NCBI RefSeq assembly: GCF_018977255.1
Contig: NW_024704742.1
Location: 62,932,001 to 62,996,000, forward strand
DNA: 64,000 nucleotides
Reading direction: 5' to 3'
DNA from: Callorhinchus milii
Taxonomy: Eukaryota
This document shows, in pieces, positions 1-63,072 of the stretch. The stretch's first letter is position 1; every line of letters starts with the position of its first letter. Made by a program: the position numbers and the translations under genes. A model generated the notes under the pieces. That model had not been told where the DNA came from and ran no database searches. It was given only the letters and a program-made list of their open reading frames with translations.

Positions 1-570
1 TGAGAATTTCTTTGACATAGAATATAGACACAGCTGCTTTATCAAGGCTGAATATTTTGTTTTTGCAGCTTGCAAATCATTTGGAAAGTACAATTGCTGC
101 TCCGTATTCTCCGATCACCATTCAGTATTAATACTTATAATGAGACTGCAACACATCCTCACATCCCAATCTCTTCTTGACCTCACTATTCTCTCTCCCA
201 TTCGTGCTTCTCTGCCCATAGGAGAGAAGAGAGTAAAACTGAGAGGTTTTGCATTTTATTCTCTGTTATTTTATTGTATTGCATATATATTTATCCTAAA
301 TATATATGTATATATATATTTCTGAGATGCTACCCCATTGTGAAGGGTGCTGTATGAATACAAGTTGTTGTATCTTTTATATTCTGTGTTCTATATTATC
401 TTACCTTAAGTAGATCATAAATTAAAGTATGATTGGAAAATGAAACTGATGAAGTAGTCATTATTACCACCTTCTCTACACAAGGAACAAAATCCAGGTT
501 TGTGAATTGTCTGTTCTGAGGCACTTTGGACTTGTTGAATTTACCTAACAGAAAGCAGAGCACACTGCGA

Positions 571-1511
571 CAACAACAACAACAAAGTTACATTTCTCTA
601 GTGCCTTTTACATTGGGAGGACATCCCAAGGCTCTGGACAATCAGTGTTTCGGACCTGAGCTGTCCAGATTGGGGAGGGTGGAGGGCACGGGGGAAAGAG
701 GGTGACCAAAGAGGAGGGTCTTGAGATGTGTCTTGAAGGAGGCAAGGGAGGGGGCAAGGTGGAGGGATGGCGGGATGGAGTTCCAGATGGTGAGGAGCAG
801 AGTGGCTGAAGACGGGGTAGTGAAGCAGGCTGGAGCCCGCTGAACAGAGGGAGCAGGCAGGTTGGTAGGGGGTTAGGAGGTAGCAGAGGTAGAGGGGAGC
901 AAGACCATGGAGGGCTTTGAAAGTGATGACCAGGATCTTGAACTGTATCCTCTGTGTGATGGGAAGCCAGTGGAGTCTGGCAAGGATGGGGGTGATAGGG
1001 TCCATGGAGCCTGGTGCAGGATAGGACACGGGCTGCAGAGTTCTGGATGATCGAAAATCTACAGAGAGAGGAGTTAGGGAAGCCAACAAGCAGTGAGTTT
1101 GCTTAGTCGAGCCTGGATGTTATGAATGCATGTATGAGGGTCTTGGGGCCTGTGGTGTGAGACAGTGGCGGAGCCAGGCGATGTTGAGGAGGTGGGGGAA
1201 GGCAGAGTGGGTCATGGCACAGATGTGGGGTAGAAAGGACGGTTGAGGTCAAGGTCTGGACTGGCTCATGAGGTGGAGTGTGCAACCATGGATGGTGATG
1301 TTGTCAGTGTTGAGGTGCTGACGGGAGCCAATCAGGAGAGCCTCGGTCTTGTTGGCGTTCAGCTGTAGAAAGTTAGCCCTTATCCAGGACTTGATGTCTG
1401 ACAGACATTCTGTCAGGACAGCAGTGGTCCTGGAGTGGAGGCAAAGAGATAGAGATGGGTGTCATCCGCACACACGTGGAATTTGACCCCATGTCTGCAG
1501 ATGATGTCACC
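571..1511 (-). mobile_element. L2-clade LINE, 5'-truncated and decayed (RT C-terminus, 3'UTR, (TTG)n tail)
   Basis: Minus-strand peptides GDIICRHGVKFHVCADDT (YADD region), LIHAFITSRLD and PITPILARLHWLPITQRIQFKIL; tail reads (CAA)n on + at 571. Confidence 0.9.
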
Positions 1512-1787
1512 AAGAGCCTTCAGCCTCTCAGCCCCGAGGCTCTGGAACTCCATCCCCCAGTGCCTTCGCCGCTTCCTCCCTTTCCTCCTTCAAGGCCAGT
1601 CTCAGGACCTTTCTCTTTGACCGTGCCTTCAGCTCCCCTCTTGACTCTCTACCCCCTCTTCGCTCCCTCCCTTCCCTCCCCTCACCCTGACCATTTCCCC
1701 CTTGCTCGGGTCCTGACCCAACTGTCGAGCGCCTTGGAACATCCTCCCGACGTGAAAGGCGCTCTATAAATGAAATCTTGTTGTTGT
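1512..1787 (+). mobile_element. L2 3' end, young subfamily, head-to-head with the previous copy
   Basis: Ends CATCCTCCCGACGTGAAAGGCGCTCTATAAATGAAATCTTGTTGTTG; nearly identical to the minus copy at 26801-27085. Confidence 0.85.
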
Positions 1788-1904
1788 GCTGTGTGAGTTG
1801 ATCCCAGCTGTTGTATAAAACCAGCAATGGATTTTTAACCATTTCATTTTCATTGATGAAAAAGTGAACACAGATCAATCAATAGATGTACCAAGACTGT
1901 TGAG

Positions 1905-2125
1905 CAAGAGGCCATAGGTTTAGAGATGTAAAAGGCAATTTCAGGACAGACACTGGGATATAATTAACAACTGGAACAGGTCGCCAGGAAAGACATTTAA
2001 GGCCAGGACACTGGACTCATTTAAAAAGCAGCTTGATGCTGTGATGGGGGACAGGAGGGTGCGTATTCCCAAAAGATAGAACAGATAGGTCAAAGGGCCT
2101 TCTTCATTCATGCAATGATCTTATG
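1905..2125 (+). mobile_element. Old CR1 3' fragment
   Basis: TGGAACAGG...TCATTTAAAAAGCAGCTTGAT...GGGCCTTCTTCATT resembles the CR1 ORF2 end and 3'UTR seen elsewhere in the window. Confidence 0.6.
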
Positions 2126-2196
2126 AAGGCTACAGTGGGAGTGCTGCAATCATGTCTTTGAGCTGGGCTTGGGGGAAAGTCAACTACGGACTCTCC

Positions 2197-3795
2197 TCTG
2201 AGCAGTAGGCAGTGGGTAGGAGCAGTGGGAGAGGTAAGAGGCAGTGGGAGTGGGTAGGGGGTGTAGAAAGTGGGGGAGAGCAGTAGGAGTGGGTGAGGTC
2301 AGTGAGAGTAGGTAGGAGCACTTCAAGATCCTCACCCTTGTCAATAATAAATTGGTCATTTTCAATCTATGACTGTTTGTGGGACATTGCTGTGCGCAAT
2401 TGGCTGCCGCGTTCTTCCACAAATATAAAGTCAATTCACTTTACAGTGTGTTCCGTGAAGCACTTTGGGACGTCCTCCCGACGTGAAAAGCGCTATATCA
2501 AATGCAAGGATTATTATTATTATTATTGTCTTCAAATCCCTCCACTCCTCTGCACCCCCCCCTATCTCTTTGACCTTCTCTCTCCTTAAAACAGTGCCCG
2601 TTGCCTTTGTTCCTCCGGGTCTGGCCTCTTCCTTGTCCCCTGAGTCCTCTGCTCCATCCTCAGTGGCTGTGCCTTCAGCCACTGCACCCCGGGGCTCTGG
2701 AACTTCCTTCCTCACTCCCTTCGCCTCGCCCCCTCTCTTCCTATTTTCAGGTCTCTGCTGAAGACTTTCCTTTTCAATTGCACCTTTGTTCACCCTCCCC
2801 CTCCCTCTGGCTTAGTCCAGGGATCTGTTAATGTGAAGTGGTCTGAGACGCCGTCCGGCGTAGAGGGCGCTATATAGATCCAAGTTGTTGTAGTTGCTGA
2901 GCAGTGGGCAGTGGGTAGGGAGAGTGGGCAGTGGGTAGGGGCATTGGCCAGTGGGTAGGGGCAATGGAAGTGGGTAGGAGCAGTGGGCAGTGGGTAGGGG
3001 CAGTGAGAGTAGGTATGGCAGTGCGAGTGGGTAGGTGCAGTGGGCAGTGGATAGGCACAGTGGACAGTGGGTAGGGGAAGTGGGCATGGGTAGGGGCATT
3101 GGGCAGTGGGTAGAGGGAGTGGGAGTGGTTAGGAGCATTGGGAGTGGGTAGGAGCACTGGGGAGGGGCAGTGGGCAGTGGGTGGGGCAGTGGGCAGTGGG
3201 TATGGGCAATGGACAGTGGGTAGGGGCAGTGGGAGTGGATAGGGACAGAGAGAGTAGGTATGGGGCAGTGAGCAGTGTATAGGACCAGTGGGCAGTGTAT
3301 AGGGACAGTGGGTAGGGGCAGTGGGAGTGGGTAGGTGCAGTGGGCAGTGGATAGGCACAGTGGGCAGTGGGTAGGGGAAGTGGGAGTGGTTAGGAGAAGT
3401 GGGCATAGGTAGGGACATTGGGCAGTGGGTAGAGGGAGTGGGAGTGGTTAGGAGCACTTGGAGTGGATAGGGGCAGTGGGCAGTGGGAGGAACAGTGGGA
3501 ATGGGTAGGGACAGTGGGAGTGGGTAGGGACAAGGGGTAGGAGCAGTCGGAGAGGGTGGGGCAGTGAGTAGGGGCAATGGACAGTGGGTAGGGACATTGG
3601 GAGCAGGTAGAGGCATTGCAAGTGGGTAGGGGCAGTGGGAGTGGGTAGGGGCAATGGACAGTGGGTAGGGTCAGTGGTAGTGGGTGGGACCATTGGGAGT
3701 GGATAGGGACAGTGCTAGTAGGTAGGGGCAGTGGGCAGCGTATAGGGCAGTGGGCAGTGTATAGGGGTAGTGGGCAGTGGTTAGGGGCAATGGGG
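2197..3795 (+). repeat. G-rich minisatellite (GGGCAGT / GGGTAG units), interrupted at 2321-2898
   Basis: Directly visible tandem array with a strongly G-skewed + strand. Confidence 0.95.
2321..2898 (+). mobile_element. L2 3' fragment with a nested SINE 3' part (2343-2525)
   Basis: FKILTLV|FKSLH reading rejoins across the SINE. Apparent TSDs TTGTC (2338-2342/2526-2530) and GAGCA (2316-2320/2899-2903). Confidence 0.85.
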
Positions 3796-4562
3796 TTAAA
3801 ATAGTTTGCATAAGAAGAGTGGGTGAATGGGGCAAGGGCATGGAGGGATGTTCTGTTGTATTTATCAGAATAGTTTATTTTTGAATATTATGTTTGGATA
3901 GTGAATTCTGCACGATAAAATAAAACTATGAGCTATTTATTAGAATTGGTTTCAATACTCGGATCCTACATGTCCCTTTGGGAGTTAAATCTAATATTTG
4001 ATTAATGTTTTAATAGTAGATGTCTGCTCTATATGACAATAGAAGGCTGTGTGCAGGTTATAGATTTTTCAGCTGAAAATCTGTTTGGGATTTGTTTGAT
4101 GTACTAATTAGCCATAATAAGAGAAGCAACCAATTCAAAATATATCTTTTGGAGATTTTAATTCAATAGAATGTTTCTGCTTTTAATTCAGATTTGATTT
4201 TCTTCTCAGCCGGTGTTCCAGGAATTTGTGTGGGACAATCTGTTATATAAGCACCTCGGTACAACTATAAATGTAATATTCCTCCCTCCTCTCTAAATTA
4301 AATGATAAACTGAAACAGGATTTCAAACCACAAGTTTCCTCATTCAGACCAATGCAACAACAATAATGTACATTTACACAATTCCATTCAGATCAGGGGG
4401 ATGGCCCAAAATGTTTCGCAGAACTAAGTGGGAGCGAGCTGCTGGTTGTGAGGGTTGAAAGATGTGGGTGTGGGGTGTTTGAAGGGTGAGGGTTACTGGG
4501 GCAAATGAAGCTGAAAGAACAGTGACTGAGAACATGGCCGAATTTCTGCTCGTACGTAGAAT

Positions 4563-4690
4563 TTTTGTTTGGTCAGCCAGGTGTCTGACACATGCAGAAA
4601 CCCATCATTATGCTTAAGACTATACGAACCAAGCTGAGAATTCCATGCATCCCACCTACACATGGAAATGTTGAATACTGTCATGGGACA
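4563..4690 (-). repeat. Unidentified dispersed repeat 'family X', terminal fragment
   Basis: Reverse complement matches 49260-49382 and 58030-58155. Confidence 0.75.
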
Positions 4691-4731
4691 GTAATGTTCA
4701 CCAAAACTGAACAGGTCAGAAAAGAAAGTAG

Positions 4732-5177
4732 CTCCAACAACACAGCACATCCCAAGCACTGCACTGGAGTGTTGAGCAGCACTACATGAGTTCAAAGTCC
4801 TGACGTGGGGCTTTAACCCACAATCATCTGACTCAGAGACAAATATGTTACTGACTGAGCCAGGCTGACACCTTCTGGATATCTCAACCTTTGTAATTTT
4901 GCATAGCTATCTGTTATCAGCCCATTAGGCTGGCTCAGTTGGTAGCACTCTCATCTTTCAGTCAGAAGGTTGTAAGTTTAAGCCCTATATTGAGTCTTCA
5001 TTAAACTCACTGTCTAAATTGGCACTCAAGTGCAATGCTGGAGAAGTGCTGAGTTGTCTTAAGTGCTGTCCTTTGGATGAGATGATAAAGTGAGGTCTCT
5101 TCTGCTTGTTCACATGGGCATTAAAGATGTCATGGCTTTATTTGAAATGAGAACAGTGTCTCATAGTGTCCTGTCCA
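4732..5177. mobile_element. Two tRNA-derived Deu-domain SINEs head-to-head (4732-4872 -, 4917-5177 +)
   Basis: Head TGGCTCAGTTGGTAGCACTCTC...AGTCAGAAGGTTGT with box A/B-like motifs; Deu-like GGATGAGATGATAAAGTGAGGTC...AAAGATGTCATGGC. Confidence 0.75.
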
Positions 5178-5184
5178 AGAATCA

Positions 5185-5885
5185 AAGAAACATAGAAATT
5201 TACAGTGTAGAAGGAGGCCATTTTGCCCAATGAATCTGCACCAGCTCACAGAGCAAGTAGATCAATTTAATCCCAGCCACCCAGCCTTATCCTGAAACCC
5301 CTTCAAGCCTCTCTCTTTCCTACTTCCCTCTCTCTTGTCTACTTCCCTTTTGAAAGCTACAATGCACTCCGTCTCTAGCACTCTACTTGGCAGGACATTC
5401 CACATCCTAACAATTTTCTGGGTGAAAAGAAATACCTTCTAAGTTTTCCTTTCATTGTTCTTGTGACAATCTTATAATGATGTCCCCGAGTCACTGACTC
5501 CTCTATCAATAGAAATAACTTCTTCCTCTTTATCCTGTCAAAATCCCTCATTANTTTTTAACACTTCTATCATGTCCCCCCTTAACCTTCTCTGCTCCAA
5601 TGAAAACAGACCCAGCTTCTTAGATCTCTCCTCATAACTGCAGCCTTTCATCCCCAGAATAATTTAAAGAGTAAACCTCCTCTGCACCCCTCTAAGGTCT
5701 TAAAAACTTTCCTAAAGTGAGGTGTCCAAAACTGGATGCAATACTCCAATAGCAACCTAACATTTTGCTTCTTTAAACTTCACTTGCCACTGATCAGCCG
5801 ATTGCACTCATCTGTTTCAATCCTCCTGAAGTCATTTGCCATCCTCATCACTATTCACTATTCATTATACTTCCGAGCTTGTTGT
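5185..5885 (-). mobile_element. CR1 3' fragment, decayed
   Basis: Reverse complement contains TATTGCATCCAGTTTTGGACACCTCAC (YCIQFWTPH) and a CR1-type 3'UTR. Confidence 0.8.
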
Positions 5886-6427
5886 CTATGATGAAGGATC
5901 ACATATGAATGAGATAATGATTGACCATCAGTACATTTCCTGAATTTAATTTCATAATTCCAGTTTTTGCTGAAGTTTGTTTAATCTTACCATGTTGTTA
6001 TTAATTGATCAAAGTCTTTATTAGAAGATTAATAAGATGGGACTCTGTTGCTGCATTATTTGGGTAATGGCTATTTCAATACAGGGAGAATCAACCCTAA
6101 ATCTAATCATAGAGTTGCTGAGAGCATTATTGTGATGACATTTTGTTTGTTTCTGTATTGAATATTGCATTTGTTTCGTTAGCTCTGGAGACAATAATGA
6201 TTGATATTTTATGATGTGATTATGGAATGACCTTTTCATGGCAAAGTACTTATTCATATCCATCAGACATGCAAGAGAGAGCATTCTCATTAATTATACT
6301 ATTCACAGTTATATCAGAACAACAACGATAACAAGTTACATATATATAGCATCTTTCACATCAACAACAACAACAAGATTACATTTGTATAGCGCTTTTC
6401 ATGTCGGAAGGATGTCCCAAGGCACTG

Positions 6428-6462
6428 AAAAATATGGAACACTTCACAAATTTGAGTGTCAT
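6428..6462 (-). pseudogene. RNU6: U6 snRNA 3'-terminal fragment fused to an L2 tail (6363-6427)
   Basis: Minus strand ATGACACTCAAATTTGTGAAGTGTTCCATATTTTT versus canonical vertebrate U6 ATGACACGCAAATTCGTGAAGCGTTCCATATTTTT: 32/35 identical, two differences are CpG transitions. Confidence 0.9.
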
Positions 6463-7039
6463 GTCATCGTGTGGATGTCTCAAAGTGCTTGGAGATTACA
6501 AAAACATAACTTTGTGGACATAGGACAAATAATAATAATCATAATCCTTGCATTTGATATAGCATCTTATCACATCATTGAGGCGTCTCAAAGTGTTTCT
6601 TAGAAGATATTGTACAGTGAATTGACTGTGTACTCTGTGGGGAAAAAAAGTCAATTCACTTTACAATATATGACTTTTTTCTGTATGAAAACAAATTCAA
6701 TGTACGAGACTATACTTCATACTATTTTCCTACTCCATCCAAAGTTCTGTCCTCTTCTAAGCAGTGAGGACAATAGGTAATTTACATTTCTCATTGTAAA
6801 TAAATACAGGTAAATAGGGAGCAGCTGCTCTCCTTGTTTTACTATCGCTTCTTTCCTTTATGTCTTCTCTACCCTTTTCTGTTCCCTGCAATAAGAAAGT
6901 TAAAACTTTCCTATTGGCATTTACTCTTTATTTCCTGCTTGAATTAGTAATACATAAGAGAATATGGCTCCTCTTGTTGACTCAGTTACAGTGGTCAGAC
7001 CAGTTTGGGTTGAGGCAATGTAAAATGGGCATCTAAAAC

Positions 7040-7390
7040 AACAACAACATCTTGCATTTATATAACACCCTTCATGTAGGGTAGCATCCCAGAGCGCTTG
7101 ATACTTGACAGCAAAATGCTGATCTATCGGTTGGCGGGGAGGTGACCGTAGGCACAGTTGAATAGGAAGGGGCAAGGCAGAGGGATAGAGGAAGAGTGTG
7201 CCAGAGTTTTGGGCCATAGTGGCTAAAAGCATGGCCACCAATGGTGAAACGGAAGATACAAGGGACATGCAGAAGGCCAGAGCCAGTTAAGTGGAGGCAG
7301 GAGTTGTGGATTAGTGGGTAAGCAATTCGGAGAGGTAGGGAGGTGCCAGGGCATGAAAGGATTTGAAGATGAGTGTAAGGATCTATCTGA
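7040..7390 (-). mobile_element. L2 3' fragment, second tail type
   Basis: Tail CTGGGATGCTACCCTACATGAAGGGTGTTATATAAATGCAAGATGTTGTTG on minus. Confidence 0.75.
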
Positions 7391-11256: not shown

Positions 11257-11493
11257 TGTTCTGGACAAGTTACAAGGATGTTGTCATACAAAGCGATTTC
11301 TCATGAGTGATCCTTCCATCACTGTGGGTCACTATTCTTTCTCTCCATTACTACATTCTACATTAACAATTACTAAAATTGAGAAAATGAAGAATGTAGT
11401 GATGGAGGGAAAGTATAGTGACCCACAGTGATGGAAGGATCACTCATGAGAAATCATTTTGTATGACAACATCCTTGTAACTTGTCCAGAACA
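11257..11493. repeat. Near-perfect inverted repeat (about 107-bp arms, about 23-nt spacer); fold-back or MITE-like
   Basis: TGTTCTGGACAAGTTACAAGGATGTTGTCATACAAA... pairs with ...TTTGTATGACAACATCCTTGTAACTTGTCCAGAACA. Confidence 0.9.
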
Positions 11494-32491: not shown

Positions 32492-33010
32492 TGTAGCATA
32501 TTGGTTAGAGGACTCGCCTTGCAAGCGAGAGGATCCAGGTCCTCGAGTTTCCTTACTCCACATGCCTCTGTTTACCTAGCAGTAAGTAGGAACCTGGTTG
32601 GTAATCGATTGGCGAATGGCTTTCTGGAGGTTAATAATCCCTTCAAAAATAAATAATAATGATTTTGTCACTCAATGATAGTAGTAATAATAATCCTTGC
32701 ATTTGATATAGTGCCTTAGCATGTCATTAAAATATGTCAAAGCACTTCACAGAATATACTGCAAAGTAATTGATAATGTATTTTGTGGATGAAAAGTGGC
32801 AGCCAATTGTGCACAGCAGTGTCCCACAAACAGTTGTGGATTGAAATCTATGACTTTTTGTGGGAGACTGTTGAGCACAATTAGTTACCATTTTTCATCC
32901 ACAAAATACAGTCAATTTACTTTGCAGTATATTCTGTGAAGTGCTTTGACACATCTCAATGACGTGATAAGGCACTATATCAAATGTAAGGATTATAATT
33001 ATTATTGTTA
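32492..33010 (+). mobile_element. Type A SINE with an inverted SINE 3' half inserted at about 32676-32845
   Basis: tRNA-like head TGGTTAGAGGACTCGCCTTGCAAGCGAG; two opposite-orientation tails. Confidence 0.8.
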
Positions 33011-33204
33011 TTATAAGTTATTGGTTGTTGTTGCCAAGCCTTCAGATTTGGTATCATTACTTATTAAGCTAATTGATGTTGTTCTTGTTACAGCTGTGTT
33101 TTTTTGTTGTCCTTGGGATGTATTTTTCCCCCACTTCACTCAAAATGGCCTAAAAAAATTCCTTGCTTTTATTCCCTAGTTGCACTTCCCACTTTATCTT
33201 CCCT

Positions 33205-34496: not shown

Positions 34497-34740
34497 AGAA
34501 GTTGCTGGGAACACTCAGCAGGTCAGGCAGCATCTCCGGAGAAAGGAAAGTGAGCCAACGTTTCGAGTCCACTATCGTTCGACTGTTCTCTGTCTGTTTC
34601 CTTTTGACAAAGAGCCATGGACCCGAAATGTTGATTCACTTTCCTTTCTCCATTGATGCTGCCTGACCTGCTGAGTGCTCCCAGTGACTTCTGTTTCTGT
34701 TTTCAGATTTCCAGCATCTGCAGTATTTCGCGTTTTGTTC
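34497..34740. mobile_element. Penelope-like inverted terminal-repeat pair
   Basis: CTGGGAACACTCAGCAGGTCAGGCAGCATC pairs with GATGCTGCCTGACCTGCTGAGTGCTCCCAG; degenerate TTGACAAAGAGCCATGGACCCGAAA core. Confidence 0.7.
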
Positions 34741-37964: not shown

Positions 37965-40125
37965 TGAAGCAAAAGTCTTCAATTTAAATTGAGCCAACTT
38001 TGCTGGTACGAGAGAGGATTTAGCCAGAATAAACTGGCAGACTAGACTTAAAGATTTGACGGTAGACCAGCAATGGCATACATTCAAGGAGATAGTGCAA
38101 AATTCCCAACGAGCACATATTCCTTTGAGGAATAAGAATGCCATGGGAAAGGTGGTGCAGCCATGGCTAACTAGAGCAGTTAGGGAAAGTATCAAATCAA
38201 AAGAAAAAGCCTATAAAACAGCGAAGATGAGTAGTAAACCCGAGGATTGGGAGAATTTTAGGGAACAACAGAGGAGAACCAAAAAATTGATCAAGAGGGA
38301 GAAAATAGATTATGAGGGCAAACTAGCAAAGAACATAAAAACAGACTCCAAGAGTTTTTACAAATATATAAAGAGGAAAAGGCTAGCGAGGGTGAATGTG
38401 GGTCCATTACAGGCAGAGACCGGAGGAATTATAATAGGGGACAAAGACATGGCAGAGTCATTAAACATGTATTTTTTTACAGTCTTCACCATAGAAGACA
38501 CTGGAAACATACCAAAAATAGAGGACCAAGAAGACAATGTTAGCGAGCAACTTAGGCAGATTAACATTAGTAAAGAGATGGTTCTAGGTAAATTGTCGGG
38601 TCTTAAAACCGATAAATCCCCTGGACCGGATGGCCTGCATCCGAGAGTTTTAAAGGAGGTAGCGACTGAGATAGTGGATGGCATGTCTATAATCTTGAGA
38701 GAAAATAGGGAAAACTATAGACCAGTTAGTTTGACGTCAGTTGTAGGGAAAATTCTTGAGTCCTTAATAAAAGACGTAGTTATGGGATACCTGGAAGACC
38801 ATAAAAAGATTAGGCAGAGTCAACATGGCTTTACAAAAGGGAAGTCATGCTTGACTAACCTTTTAGAATTTTTTGAGGATGTATCCAGCAGGTTGGATAA
38901 GGGGGAACCAGTAGATGTGGTATATTTGGATTTTAGGAAGGCATTTGACAAGGTGCCACACAAAAGGCTGTTACTCAAGATCAAGGCCCACGGGATTAAT
39001 GGGAAAATATTAACATGGATAGAAGAGTGGCTATCGGGTAGAAAGCAGAGAGTAGTGATAAACGGATCATTCTCGAATTGGCAGGATGTAACTAGTGGAG
39101 TGCCACAAGGATCAGTGCTTGGGCCTCAGCTATTTACCATTTACATCAATGATCTGGACGAGGACATTGAATGTAATGTGTCTAAATTCGCGGATGATAC
39201 TAAACTAGGTAGCAGAGTGAGCTCTCAGGATGATGCAAAAAGATTGCAACAAGATATAGATAGGCTCGGGGAGTGGGCAAGTAGGTGGCAGATGGAATTC
39301 AATGTTAGCAAGTGTGAAATTATTCACCTTGGTAGCAAGAATAAAAGAACAGATTATTTTCTGGAAGGGGAGAAGTTAGATAGTGTTAGTATTCAAAGGG
39401 ATTTGGGTGTCCTTGTACACCAGTCCCAAAAAGTTAGTTTGCAGGTGCAGCAAGCAACTAAGAAGGCGAACGGCATGTTAGCGTTCATTTCGAAAGGTTT
39501 AGAATATAAGAGTAGGGAAGTCTTGCTGCAACTGTATAGGGCTTTGGTGAGACCGCACCTAGAGTATTGTGTGCAGTTTTGGTCTCCTTATTTAAAAAAG
39601 GACATACTTGCCCTAGAGGGGGTGCAGCGTAGATTCACTCGGTTAGTTCCTGGGATGAGGGGACTGACCTATGAGGATAGGCTGAATAAACTAGGGCTGT
39701 ATTCTCTAGAGTACAGAAGAATTAGGGGAGATCTTATTGAAACTTATAAGATTCTTAAAGGGCTGGATAAAGTAGACACAGAGGGACTGTTTCCCCTGGT
39801 AGGAGAATCTATAACCAGGGGTCACAGTCTTAAAATTAAGGGTCAGCATCTTAGAACAGAGTTGAGGAAACATTTTTTCACTCAGAGGGTAGTGAACTTA
39901 TGGAATTCACTACCCCAGAAGGCTGTAGATGCTCAGTCCTTGAACATTTTCAAGGCTGAGACTGATAGATTCTTGAAAAATAGAGGGATTAGGGGATATG
40001 AGGATAGGGCAGGTAATCAGAGTTAGGTGAGAAGATCAGCCATGATCTTATTGAATGGCGGAGCAGGCACGAAGGGCCGAATGGCCTACTCCTGCTCCTA
40101 ATTCTTATGTTCTTATGTTCTTATG
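37965..40125 (+). mobile_element. Young CR1 LINE, 5'-truncated, inserted in a SINE
   Basis: Open ORF2; 3'UTR GGGCCGAATGGCCTACTCCTGCTCC and (TTCTTATG)n; host SINE rejoins as CATTCACTTC|ATGGCT. Confidence 0.95.
38056..40026 (+). CDS. CR1 ORF2 reverse transcriptase, partial (656 aa, no endonuclease domain)
   Basis: [46 protein letters not shown]. Confidence 0.9.
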   Translation: MTVDQQWHTFKEIVQNSQRAHIPLRNKNAMGKVVQPWLTRAVRESIKSKEKAYKTAKMSSKPEDWENFREQQRRTKKLIKREKIDYEGKLAKNIKTDSKSFYKYIKRKRLARVNVGPLQAETGGIIIGDKDMAESLNMYFFTVFTIEDTGNIPKIEDQEDNVSEQLRQINISKEMVLGKLSGLKTDKSPGPDGLHPRVLKEVATEIVDGMSIILRENRENYRPVSLTSVVGKILESLIKDVVMGYLEDHKKIRQSQHGFTKGKSCLTNLLEFFEDVSSRLDKGEPVDVVYLDFRKAFDKVPHKRLLLKIKAHGINGKILTWIEEWLSGRKQRVVINGSFSNWQDVTSGVPQGSVLGPQLFTIYINDLDEDIECNVSKFADDTKLGSRVSSQDDAKRLQQDIDRLGEWASRWQMEFNVSKCEIIHLGSKNKRTDYFLEGEKLDSVSIQRDLGVLVHQSQKVSLQVQQATKKANGMLAFISKGLEYKSREVLLQLYRALVRPHLEYCVQFWSPYLKKDILALEGVQRRFTRLVPGMRGLTYEDRLNKLGLYSLEYRRIRGDLIETYKILKGLDKVDTEGLFPLVGESITRGHSLKIKGQHLRTELRKHFFTQRVVNLWNSLPQKAVDAQSLNIFKAETDRFLKNRGIRGYEDRAGNQS

Positions 40126-40584
40126 TTCATGGCTTTGTGTAGGACCTTGCTGTGCAACTTGCCTGATTGTGTATGCTGACAAATACACCACACTGACAAC
40201 AATTACCTTTCCAACATTTTGAGATGCTTCAGTGTTGTAGGCTCTATATCAATTACAAGGATTATTAAGCGTTGTCTCTTTATGGATTTTTATTTCTCTT
40301 TATGCCATTTTCTGTTTGCTGTATTTCAATAATTTTATTTAACCGTTTTATCAGTACTTTTTGCTTCCAACACAGTTAAAGTACTTGTATATCTTATTTG
40401 TTCAAATAATTCTACCTTGATTTTAGGGTTTTGCCCCGGTGGTTTTTAATAATTCCCGACTAATATTTCCTCCCTTTGCAGTCATGGTTAAAAATGACTT
40501 GAAATGAGTATAATTGGAGATGGAGTTTTCAATAGCTGGTAGAAATTCTTACAACGAAAGATATCTGTCCTCTATTTAGTTAGG

Positions 40585-43100: not shown

Positions 43101-44202
43101 GGAGCAACATGGCTCTGTGCTGATGCAGATCTACAACAGCATCACAGCAACAAGAAGCAATCTCTTCTGTTGAACCAAAAAGTTTTCAATTTTGTGATCC
43201 TTGCAAGTGTTTTATTTTCTTTCTAGTTCCAAAGCAATGTATTGTGGAATTAACAAGTATTATGTCATCTCCACCAGGAAGAAAATGGCCCTTATACTTT
43301 AGTTAACTGTCTGAGGAAAAGTTCTGTTAAAATGAATTGCCAAGCTCAGCATTTGACAAGCTTCTTCCCCTGCCTGCTATTCTCAGGGTTTCACCTCCCC
43401 CCCCCCCCCCCCCCCAGGCACAACATTATCAAGTCAATGAACGTACTCTACAGGTTCTCTTAGCACTGTATCTCTCCCATCTTATGCTTTACAGTATTAA
43501 CTCTCACTGCAGACTTCCAGAGTTCAAAGCTTCCTCTGAAACTGGCACTTCAAATGTTCGACTCAGTTTGGGTAGAGGATTGTCTCTGTGGTTAGTATTC
43601 ACAGGGTTTTTATATTGATTCCCTTTCCATCTAGGATGTGGTTGTGATTTTTATTCTACTTAGGGAGCACATACCTGATCTTTTACAGGAATGTTTTAAA
43701 CACTGAAAAATGACAGAGACATACCTGGCAACTAAGGACCCATTAGCCAGTCCTAAGTAATAGGAAAACTGATAAAATTAACAATTAGACCTAGATGATT
43801 AATCATTAGAACCAGTAGGACGATACATTGCTCACCATAGCCAAACATTTTGAAACATCAATAAAGAAGGTGAACCCAGCACCCAGCTCAGATGCAAATC
43901 CTTGTCTGTCCAGTATCTTGAGACATCTTTCTGATGTAAAAGGCATTTTATAAATGCAATTTGTTGTAGTAAATAGGCGGCTGGACCAAATTGCCAAATT
44001 AGTTGAGATCACAAGGTTAATTTGGAAGAAGAAGGCCCTTTAGTCAAACTAATCTCATCTTTCCAGGCAACCTGTCCCAGTCTTTGATTACCCACTGAGT
44101 AGGCACATGGACAAGAGTCTTATAGGGTAAAAGAGAAAAGGCTGGGAATTGAGACCTAGATGGATGGCATCATTGGAGGAGCAAACACGGAGAACAATAG
44201 AT

Positions 44203-44518
44203 TAATAATAATAATAATAATTTTTGCACTTGATATAGCACTTTTCACTTCTTCTAGATGTCTCAAAGCACTTCACAGAATATGCTGTAAAATGAATTGA
44301 CTATATATTTGTGGACAAAACACGGCAGCCAATTGCGCACAGCAGTGTCCACAAACAGATGCAGATTGAAGTGACCAATTTATTACGTTTTTTTTCTTGA
44401 GGGATTATTATCAGGCATGTGGAGTAAGGAAACTTGTCCAAGGCTTTGCCTGCCGGGAATTAAACCCAGGTCTCTCGCTTGCAAGGCGAGGGCTCTAACC
44501 ACTGAGCTACAGGACTCC
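44203..44518 (-). mobile_element. Type A tRNA-derived SINE (head resembles tRNA-Ala, TGC at the anticodon position)
   Basis: GGAGTCCTGTAGCTCAGTGGTTAGAGCCCTCGCCTTGCAAGCGAGAGACCTGGGTTTAATTCCC. Confidence 0.85.
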
Positions 44519-45104
44519 AAATATAATTATTAGAATGGTCTCTTGTAGTTCATAGGTTGCTATGGCTCTATGGTTCCATCTACAGTCCTGCTTTAAATTG
44601 AAACATCGGTTTCACAGCTTTTAAATTCCTGTTCAGAGAGGTTTGACCGTATCCAAGTGCCCATTACTATTTTCCTTGTTTTTCTCATTTCAGGTAATAA
44701 CTGTACATATTTTGTTTTGCAATATATTCTGTGTTTCAATGTTCTGCTTGAGCCTTTTAATCTCGGCTACCAACCACTCTGCATCTTAGTTGTGATTAGT
44801 CTTGTTTAGGAGGGTATCTTTCATCCACTTCGTGGCTGTTTGTGGGACAATACTGAGCACAAATTGATGTCCACCTAGAATTTCACAATAAAATCCTATA
44901 AAGTGCTTTGAGCCGACTTGACGACATGATAAGGTGCTATATGAAGATGATTATTATTACTTTTATTATAACCAAGGTTGATGACTTCAATCCAATTTGA
45001 ACACAGGGAATGGCTAATCAATGAGGGGAACATCTTATTGTGAATTACTGCATAAGGTAGTAAAAGGTAGAGGATCATCAGTGGCAATTGCAAATGATGT
45101 ATCC

Positions 45105-56420: not shown

Positions 56421-57559
56421 CCAACTTTAAAACTGAATACAGGAAATTTTCCCCTCCAAAAATGGACATAAAATTAAGACCGTGAAGTCTATTTTGGAAA
56501 ACAGATAATTACTAGCAAGTAAGCAAAAGGTAGAAATGAACCCTTTGCTTTTCATGTTTTTATAATTGCTGTGTGTAATTGGCTGCTATGTTTCATCAAA
56601 GAATATACAGTCCAGTGCCTTAGGACGTCCTCCTGACGTGAAAGGCGCTCTATAAATGTAATTTTGTTGTTGTTGTTGTCTATCCATTTTACAATATATT
56701 CTGTGAAGTGCTTTCAGACATTTCAACGTTGCACTATATCAAATGCAAGGATTATTATTATTATTTGGCTGATGAAAGTTTCTTTGCATTTTTAATCCTT
56801 GCCGTATTTTTAAAGTCTTCTTGACCTTACACAGTCCTATCACTGGGAAATAGTAGAATATTTTACTGGGAGATTCATGTGATATCTTCAGAAACGTAAT
56901 TGGTTATAAGGGACTATCTCCAAGGCAAAACATTCACCCCTGGCCAGTAGATGGTGAGAGCAGTGCTTTCATAATTAAACATTTCTTTCTCTTATTACCT
57001 TTTACTATCAATAATTGATGGATTTATGAGATATCTGAATTTCAACACAAACCTTTACAATACAATTCACAGACTATGGATGCAGCACCGAGTCTCTGGA
57101 GAAATCTTAGCTTGTAAATTCTGTATATAATTTGAAAAAAGCAGTTGAAGTTTTAGGGGTTGTCTTAAGAAAATGAAGGAAATTTAAAGTTTAGTTTTTT
57201 TCATAGTACAGATTCATAGAAAGTACAGCTCAGAAACAGGCTATTTAGCCCGGTCTATCTGGCCTATCCCTGATCCTATCCCTAGTCCCATATCACAGCC
57301 TTTTTCCCGTATCCCACAACTTTATTCTCTCTCAACCATGAGTCCAGTCTTTTTTTGAAAAAGCTAAAACATTTAGATATTGTAAGTGGAGTAACCTGAA
57401 GCATCTTGGGAAACTCAGTCCCCACCCCAACACACGCTCAACCAGACCCTTCCCACACCTCTCAGGTCCCACTCCCAGCCCTAGTGTCCAGCATTCAGCA
57501 TCAAGCGTTTTGGGACATCCTCCGAATGTGAAGGCACCTTATAAATGCAAATTTGGGAG

Positions 57560-58648: not shown

Positions 58649-59000
58649 TATAATAATAATCCTTGCATTTGATATAGTGCTTTATCATGTCTTGACCTCT
58701 CAAAAGCGCTTCACAGAATATACTGTAAAGTGAATTGATTGTATATTTGAGGGCGAAATGCAGCAGCCAATTGCACACAGTCATGGATTGAGTGACCAAA
58801 TTATTATTTTTTTTAGGAATAATTATCCCTGGAAAAGTGATCCGCCAATCGACTACTCTACTTACTGCTAGGTAAACAAGTGGTGTGGAGTAAGAAAACT
58901 TGCCCAACATTTCGCTCTGCCCGGGAATAGAACCCAGGTCTCTCGCTTGTGAGGCGAGAGGTCTAACCACTGAACTACAGGATTCCAAGGACTCCAGGAC
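58649..59000 (-). mobile_element. Full-length type A SINE
   Basis: Collinear with 11601-11977. Confidence 0.85.
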
Positions 59001-62000: not shown

Positions 62001-62497
62001 TAGTGATGAGCAATGTTGATTGAACTCCAGAACACGTTTGTTATTTCTCAAAATGCTCTTTTGTCTCTCAAGTTTTTTCTAACAAAAAAGTGTAACAAAC
62101 AATACTAAATCAAATCTCTAACCAGAAACGTAAACTGTTAAAATAAGTAATATGTTCAGGGATTTGTATTTTCTTTTTAAATAAAAAACAATTCTTGCAT
62201 TTGATGTAGCTCCTTTCATGTTGGGAGGACATCTCAAAGTGTTTCACAGGGTTCACTGAAAAGTGTAGTGACTGTATTTTTGCAGGCAAACCCAGCAGCC
62301 AATTTGCACAGAGCAACATCCCGCACGTAGCCATGAGGTAGCTACAAATAAACAGTAACTACACTTCACAGTAAAATCTTGTGAAGTGCTTTGAGACATT
62401 TCAATAATGTGATAAGGTACTGCATAAAATGCAAGGATTATTATCAATAGTAATAAGTATCAATAATAATCAATATCAATAATAATCAATAATAATA

Positions 62498-63072
62498 AGC
62501 TTCATCGGCCTTCCCAACTCTTCCCTTCCCAAGCTGCAGATCATCCAAAACTCTGCAGCTTGTGCTCTCTCGCGCACCAGGCTCCGCGACCCCATCACTC
62601 CCTCCCTCGTCCGTCTCCACTGGCTCCTCATCCCTCAGAGGATCGAATTCAAGATCCTCGTCCTCACTTTCAAGGCCATCCATGGCCTTGTCCCCTCCTA
62701 CCTCTCTGACCTGCTGACTCCCTACCAACCTGCCCGCTCCCTCTGTTTATTGGGCTCCAGCCTGCTCCATGTCTCCCGCCCGACCCGCCCTACCATAGGT
62801 GGCCGGGCTTTCAGCCTCTCTGCCCCCACACTCTGGAACTCCATCCCACAGTCCCTTCACCTTGTTTCCTCCCTTGCCTCCTTCAAGGCCGGTCTCAAGA
62901 CCCTTCTCTTCAATCATGCCTTCGATTGCCCTCCCACCTTTCTGCCATCCCTCACGTCTACCCTACCCTTCCCCCATGCTCGGGTCCTGACCCCTGACTG
63001 TCCAGTGCCTTGGGACATCCTCCCGACGTGAAAGGCACTCTATAAATATAATTTTGTTGTTGGTGTTGTTGT
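62498..63072 (+). mobile_element. Young L2 3' fragment
   Basis: KLQIIQNSAA, DPITPSLVRLHWL, RIEFKILVLTFKAIHGL and tail; closely matches the reverse of 19411-19975. Confidence 0.92.

Follow-up and report, generated by a model that had tools for sequence, protein, structure and literature searches.

How did the last third of a spliceosomal RNA come to lie directly on the tail of a LINE, inside a second and older tail, and did the two pieces arrive together, one after the other, or as a unit that was already spreading as a family? The locus at 6363-6468 of the Callorhinchus milii DNA analysed here (a stretch of 64 kb, hereafter the window) raises this question. We propose that a piece of U6 snRNA was inserted in one event together with the minimal tail of a LINE that is abundant here and likely belongs to the L2 clade, a reading to which we give a probability of about 0.85, and that the result is a dead and probably one-off chimeric retrocopy. 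The two parts, the junction between them, the duplication that brackets them and the host tail that they split are all directly visible in the DNA.

The minus strand at 6428-6462 holds the 3'-terminal 35 nt of U6, truncated on the 5' side and ending in five T, as an earlier note on this DNA had claimed. In a comparison over 4227 Rfam families the piece matches the U6 model (RF00026) at model positions 71-105 of 105, with 20.6 bits and an E-value of 0.024, and agrees with the consensus letters at 30 of its 35 positions. Recognition by this model, on which the claim had been made to depend, is positive in part: U6 has the lowest E-value among the 10 Rfam matches in 5800-7100 and is matched at its 3' end, but the score lies below the gathering score of 44 bits, and a gathering-level Rfam scan of the window does not report the piece. 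A functional U6 gene would be full length and reach at least 44 bits; covering 35 of 105 positions at less than half that score, this piece is not one. Compared by eye with human U6 (template from PMC6789731, Table S9), it is identical at 31 of 34 positions through to the U6 3' end, and its three mismatches (two C-to-T, one G-to-T) all fall at CpG. The piece thus shares with Group IV U6/LINE chimeric pseudogenes an intact U6 3' end on U6-derived sequence. No further U6 match up to E 10 occurs among the 5 Rfam matches in 1-5799 or among the 16 in 7101-64000, where the stricter filters applied to long stretches make for an imperfect control. BLASTN of the piece against the window likewise returned only the piece itself and one 16-nt match (E 0.73).

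The five T abut, with no spacer, the 65-nt 3' tail of a LINE (6363-6427, minus strand) consisting of a predicted stem-loop and a TTG repeat. The window contains 28 other BLASTN matches to this tail, 19 of them at E<1e-3 and the best at 89% over 65 nt. These tails fall into two types. One is the TTG type, in whose long copies the decayed end of a LINE ORF2 lies upstream; the other, the ATT type, is borne by tRNA-headed SINEs. The U6-bearing insert has the TTG type. Compared with 1002 candidate proteins, an ORF2 fragment at 62486-63028 has 64 relatives at E<=1e-10, most of them with RVT_1; the best three relatives are from Callorhinchus milii (70-80% identity), followed by teleost proteins near 50%. 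The other LINE of the window (37993-40026) shows 25-31% identity to its 8 best matches among the relatives of the ORF2 fragment and has a different tail. Judged by ORF relatives and tails, the parent of the inserted tail is thus an endonuclease/RT LINE separate from the CR1-type LINE. The latter, at 37993-40128 on the plus strand, has a 677-aa open frame (RVT_1, E 1e-33), ends in an 8-nt repeat and is relatively young.

Pfam found no domain in four of five LINE fragments, and a PDB sequence search and a protein atlas, whose clusters are unnamed, left the LINE clade unplaced. On the basis of ORF2 C-terminal motifs and of tail anatomy, we take the LINE of the tail to be L2-type and the other to be CR1-type. 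The parent LINE therefore likely belongs to the L2 clade, which is as far as we would go with the assignment in the earlier note. Against it, one review gives CR1-2_CM as the name of the partner of the elephant-shark SINE, though names of the CR1-2 style also cover L2-clade elements, ZfL2-2 being CR1-2_DR (PMC4245944).

A consensus 12-pair stem-loop is predicted by RNAalifold in 14 other tail copies, and its outer stem begins one base past the position of the U6 junction. The copies pair at 92% of 112 cells of a stem that was drawn from the same sequences, and the covariation term is near zero. Folded alone, the inserted tail does no better than its shuffles (z +1.37); 1718-1790, at z -2.63, is the one stretch of the five folded that does. 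With covariation near zero and the inserted copy, folded alone, giving no support, the case for the stem comes mostly from the likeness of the tail to published L2 tails. Short tails of 65-86 nt that stand alone are common in the window (copies of 67, 71, 76 and 86 nt). One 71-nt copy of the same LINE family, at 56607-56677 on the plus strand, lies within the body of a SINE and is flanked by what looks like a GTC duplication; as a control, it shows that inserts of the parent LINE can be very short and have short duplications.

The joints of the insert can be placed to the base. The base preceding the tail at the U6/tail junction differs from the LINE majority, and there is therefore no microhomology at this junction; U6 is fused directly, and in the same orientation, to a 5'-truncated non-LTR retrotransposon with an intact 3' end, a second feature of Group IV. 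On the other side, two extra bases (6463-6464, minus strand) lie between the U6 piece and the duplication. Positions 6467-6463 carry the same five bases with which the U6 piece opens, and the stretch 6468-6463 matches U6 exactly across the truncation point. The target-site duplication, GATG on the minus strand and CATC on the plus strand, has its upstream copy at 6465-6468 and its downstream copy at 6359-6362, the first G of the latter doubling as the end of the fifth TTG unit of the tail. Both U6 and tail are therefore enclosed by one 4-nt target-site duplication, as in Group IV, although so short a repeat gives moderate support, the chance of a 4-nt repeat at a given register being about 1 in 200.

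What lies outside the duplication is a tail of the same kind, cut in two. The 5' half of this older host tail occupies 6469-6490 (minus strand; 19 of 26 positions identical to the majority of nine other tails, duplication counted), and the 3' half, with a decayed TTG repeat, occupies 6318-6358 (minus strand; 23 of 36 identical to the majority), where TRF finds a 43-nt tandem. We scored 81 trial joins of the flanks with a matrix built from the nine other tails. Nine joins exceed 25 bits, all in one register, and the top five tie at 36.3, each excising exactly 106 nt; five equal-scoring joins in one register imply a duplication of 4 nt. Excision of 6363-6468 thus rebuilds the older tail in exact register and leaves the 4-nt duplication. 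Each flank is a true tail half: only 15 of 126,100 and 12 of 126,060 other positions score as high as the respective halves. We rejected a reading in which 6468-6460 belong to a host tail of the SINE type that overlaps U6: this would call for a 3-nt insertion, and the other half is LINE-type, whereas the join at GATG is gapless. Counted before the repeat, 12 of 50 columns of the host depart from the majority, against 6 of 47 in the insert. A younger insert would give this result, though a subfamily difference may explain part of this gap. The direct junction of U6 to a 65-nt 3' end (6427-6363), the placement of the unit inside an older tail with halves on both sides and the candidate CATC duplication had all been put forward in the earlier note, and all of them, together with its coordinates, hold on the sequence.

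Next to the host tail, at 6531-6645 on the minus strand, lies the 3' part of a tRNA-headed SINE with an ATT-repeat tail, in the same orientation and from a separate insertion. The segment 6469-6720 has 16 window matches at E<=1e-5, including the tail of a SINE at 44200-44520. A 21-nt inverted repeat (95%) at 6607-6669 marks the 5' edge of this SINE piece, one arm being SINE body. ARAGORN calls tRNA-Ala and tRNA-Val at 44446-44515 and 58913-58983 (minus strand); these are heads of the abundant SINE and not tRNA genes. At 32674-33012 two SINE 3' parts stand head to head in a palindrome that is almost perfect, its arms of 96 and 66 nt meeting at a 2-nt centre. Other repeats of the window are an inverted repeat at 11257-11493 (108-nt arms, 94% complementary, 21-nt spacer), possibly MITE-like and with sub-threshold matches to microRNA hairpins, one at 34497-34692 (75-nt arms, 87% complementary, 46-nt spacer) and a G-rich minisatellite at 2901-3794 (19-nt unit, about 46 copies).

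The segment 5900-7000 is partly present in 12 of 24 listed sequencing runs. Four of these contain at least half of its words (0.96, 0.96, 0.96 and 0.79); they belong to one study, which may itself be the source, and are thus not independent, and the shares in the other eight (0.05-0.07) are no evidence. None of the 24 runs is an RNA run that contains the segment.

Hypothetically, the insertion required a short series of steps. A LINE RNA would have been cut just 5' of its tail stem-loop, and a mature U6, with five U and a cyclic phosphate, may then have been joined to the cut end. With the LINE protein bound to the stem-loop, reverse transcription would have started from the TTG repeat, primed where the older tail was nicked in its loop region; the last G of the TTG repeat is common to the target. 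Reverse transcription may have halted 35 nt into U6, after which the cDNA end could have annealed to the target via the common GATG, slipped back five bases and been sealed, giving the 4-nt duplication. The inserted copy would later have decayed at CpG sites. The joining step has a precedent in human cells, where RtcB joins U6 with a cyclic phosphate end to L1 and to GFP RNA, the only setting in which this is biochemically demonstrated in the work as described (PMC6789731). The same source gives five U as the typical mature U6 end, and five T is the commonest junction in its listed human U6/L1 RNAs (Tables S4-S5).

Given one event, we lean slightly towards joining by RNA ligation of the RtcB type over a jump between templates. 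The sequence would be compatible with both, since the DNA product is the same, and cannot decide. The competing account keeps the single insertion but places the joining in DNA synthesis: at a broken template end, or stalled past the stem, the LINE reverse transcriptase would have jumped onto the 3' end of free U6. This account, which takes a share of the probability given to co-insertion rather than adding to it, is possible if not our first choice. It is the mechanism stated for U6/L2 by Doucet et al. 2015 (PMC4476161), and the junction falls one base beyond the predicted stem, a place at which further copies end too (67, 71, 76 and 86 nt); yet an intact five-T end without homology or extra bases is what ligation produces, and direct biochemical support exists for the ligation of human U6 (PMC6789731). 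A different history would need two events, with a short LINE tail landing before a piece of U6 cDNA was patched onto its 5' edge. Short tails that stand alone, such as 56607-56677 in a SINE with its 3-nt duplication, show that the tail could have arrived alone. However, the U6 piece has neither a tail nor a duplication of its own and sits inside the one duplication; decay is similar in both parts (3 of 34 positions in U6, 7 of 59 in the tail); a same-orientation landing within one base of the 5' end of a tail has a chance of about 7e-4 (by hand, 30 tails x 3 / 128,000); and platypus U6 copies, as described, occur either alone, as likely genes, or on L2 or Mon-1 (PMC4476161). We consider two events improbable. 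That excision of 106 nt restores the host tail and leaves a 4-nt duplication suggests that U6 and tail arrived together. L2-clade inserts most often have duplications of 3-5 bp, and their 5' junctions frequently show extra bases or microhomology (PMC4245944), so the 4-nt duplication, the 5' extra bases and the microhomology seen here are typical of the clade and favour co-insertion, as does the same anatomy in platypus. This support is tempered by there being one copy, and by an empty site that is a reconstruction from the flanks. Least probable of all is that the likeness to U6 arose by chance, in A+T-rich DNA that lies between tandem tails. An Rfam score under the cut-off speaks for it, as do nine other matches of 13-23 bits that occur by chance within this 1.3 kb; but identity at 31 of 34 positions, ending exactly at the U6 3' end and broken only at CpG, has by a hand estimate with equal base frequencies a chance of about 5e-16 per position and about 1e-10 over both strands of the window, which A+T bias would lift, yet not to chance level.

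The alternative raised in the earlier note, that the insert is a truncated member of an undescribed U6-headed, L2-tailed SINE family spread from master copies, finds no support within the window. SINEU is an example of a family founded by snRNA heads (PMC4494074), and the tail retains in full the predicted stem-loop and the repeat on which L2 proteins depend (PMC1636434, PMC4176376). However, U6 lies upstream of none of the 17 other tail copies inspected, and no second U6 piece occurs within the 64-kb window. U6 uses upstream promoter elements (PMC6789731), no internal promoter is reported for snRNA genes in the relevant text of PMC4494074, and five T would stop Pol III before the tail. Leaving aside a master copy elsewhere, the present copy is without the 5' two thirds of U6 and without the promoter upstream of it, and its tail is preceded by five T, so that it does not show the transcription through to the tail that a SINE would have. 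The argument made for SINEU as a family was that no LINE shares its 3' end (PMC4494074, as presented there); here such a LINE is abundant. The 64 kb sample very little of the genome, which leaves a slim chance for a family of few copies; we consider this reading very unlikely. Equally unlikely is its fuller form, an undescribed retroposon family in chimaeras (ratfish) with a master copy in which U6 was joined at the base of the LINE stem-loop, transcribed from a flanking promoter by reading through the T run and spread by the LINE. No U6-headed SINE was found among open-licence papers and the top results of larger searches, and such a family, if true, would be the first SINE-like one with a U6 head in the literature found. 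A doubtful but more credible prospect is that the genome holds many independent U6 chimeras joining at the stem base, which would mark a hot spot of cleavage and ligation in a stringent LINE RNA. A shared junction or such a hot spot, if true, would matter more than the single insertion that we favour, the hot spot bearing on ligation versus template switching in stringent LINEs.

With the co-insertion proposed here, the U6/L2-type chimeras of platypus and lizard likely gain a counterpart in cartilaginous fish. If true, this would make the U6-LINE joining route common to jawed vertebrates, as a specialist would expect. The earlier suggestion that an L2-clade LINE captures spliceosomal RNA in this lineage thus stands as far as a single, well-supported U6/LINE chimera goes, and does not reach beyond the known case, U6/L2 having been published (PMC4476161). 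The anatomy is already described, and probably only the host group is new. The survey of Doucet et al. 2015, by its own account, covers 48 genomes from Xenopus to mammals, with no fish among them (PMC4476161), and no U6/LINE chimera of a shark or elephant shark was found among the open-licence papers covered and, for the larger searches, their top 20 results.

In platypus, that survey describes 40 cases of U6 joined to L2 or Mon-1; nearly all consist of a 5'-truncated U6 followed by a short L2 sequence, and 72.5% show duplications of 1-9 bp. For the lizard Anolis it gives nine chimeras, three U6/L2 and six U6/AnolisSINE2 (PMC4476161). The insert is like these Group IV chimeras in its 5'-truncated U6 with an intact 3' end, placed in the same orientation upstream of a short L2-type piece within a short duplication (1-9 bp there, 4 here). 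It differs in its cartilaginous fish host, in its divergence of about 9%, which places it outside their 97.5% filter, and in being nested in an older tail. The U6/L1 chimeric pseudogenes and RtcB-ligated U6/L1 RNA of Moldovan et al. 2019 (PMC6789731) share with it a mature five-T U6 end directly on a 5'-truncated LINE, but most of them have a full-length U6, their partner is L1 and the duplications listed for them measure 6-19 bp, whereas the insert combines 35 nt of U6 with a partner whose end is a predicted stem-loop followed by a TTG repeat, within a duplication of 4 nt. With the SINEU of crocodilians (Kojima 2015, PMC4494074) it shares an snRNA-derived 5' part on a retrotransposed unit; SINEU, as described, has U1 or U2 heads, many copies with a common structure and no LINE with the same 3' end, in contrast to U6, one copy seen and an abundant LINE tail in the present case. 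Finally, the tails of the L2-clade elements UnaL2 and ZfL2 (PMC1636434, PMC4176376) and of the major elephant-shark LINE/SINE pair (PMC1845163) resemble the inserted tail in its predicted anatomy, going by their descriptions as tails of about 60 nt with a stem-loop and a short terminal repeat, common to a LINE and a tRNA-headed SINE, although the loop and the repeat unit differ, the latter being TTG here and TGTAA in UnaL2.
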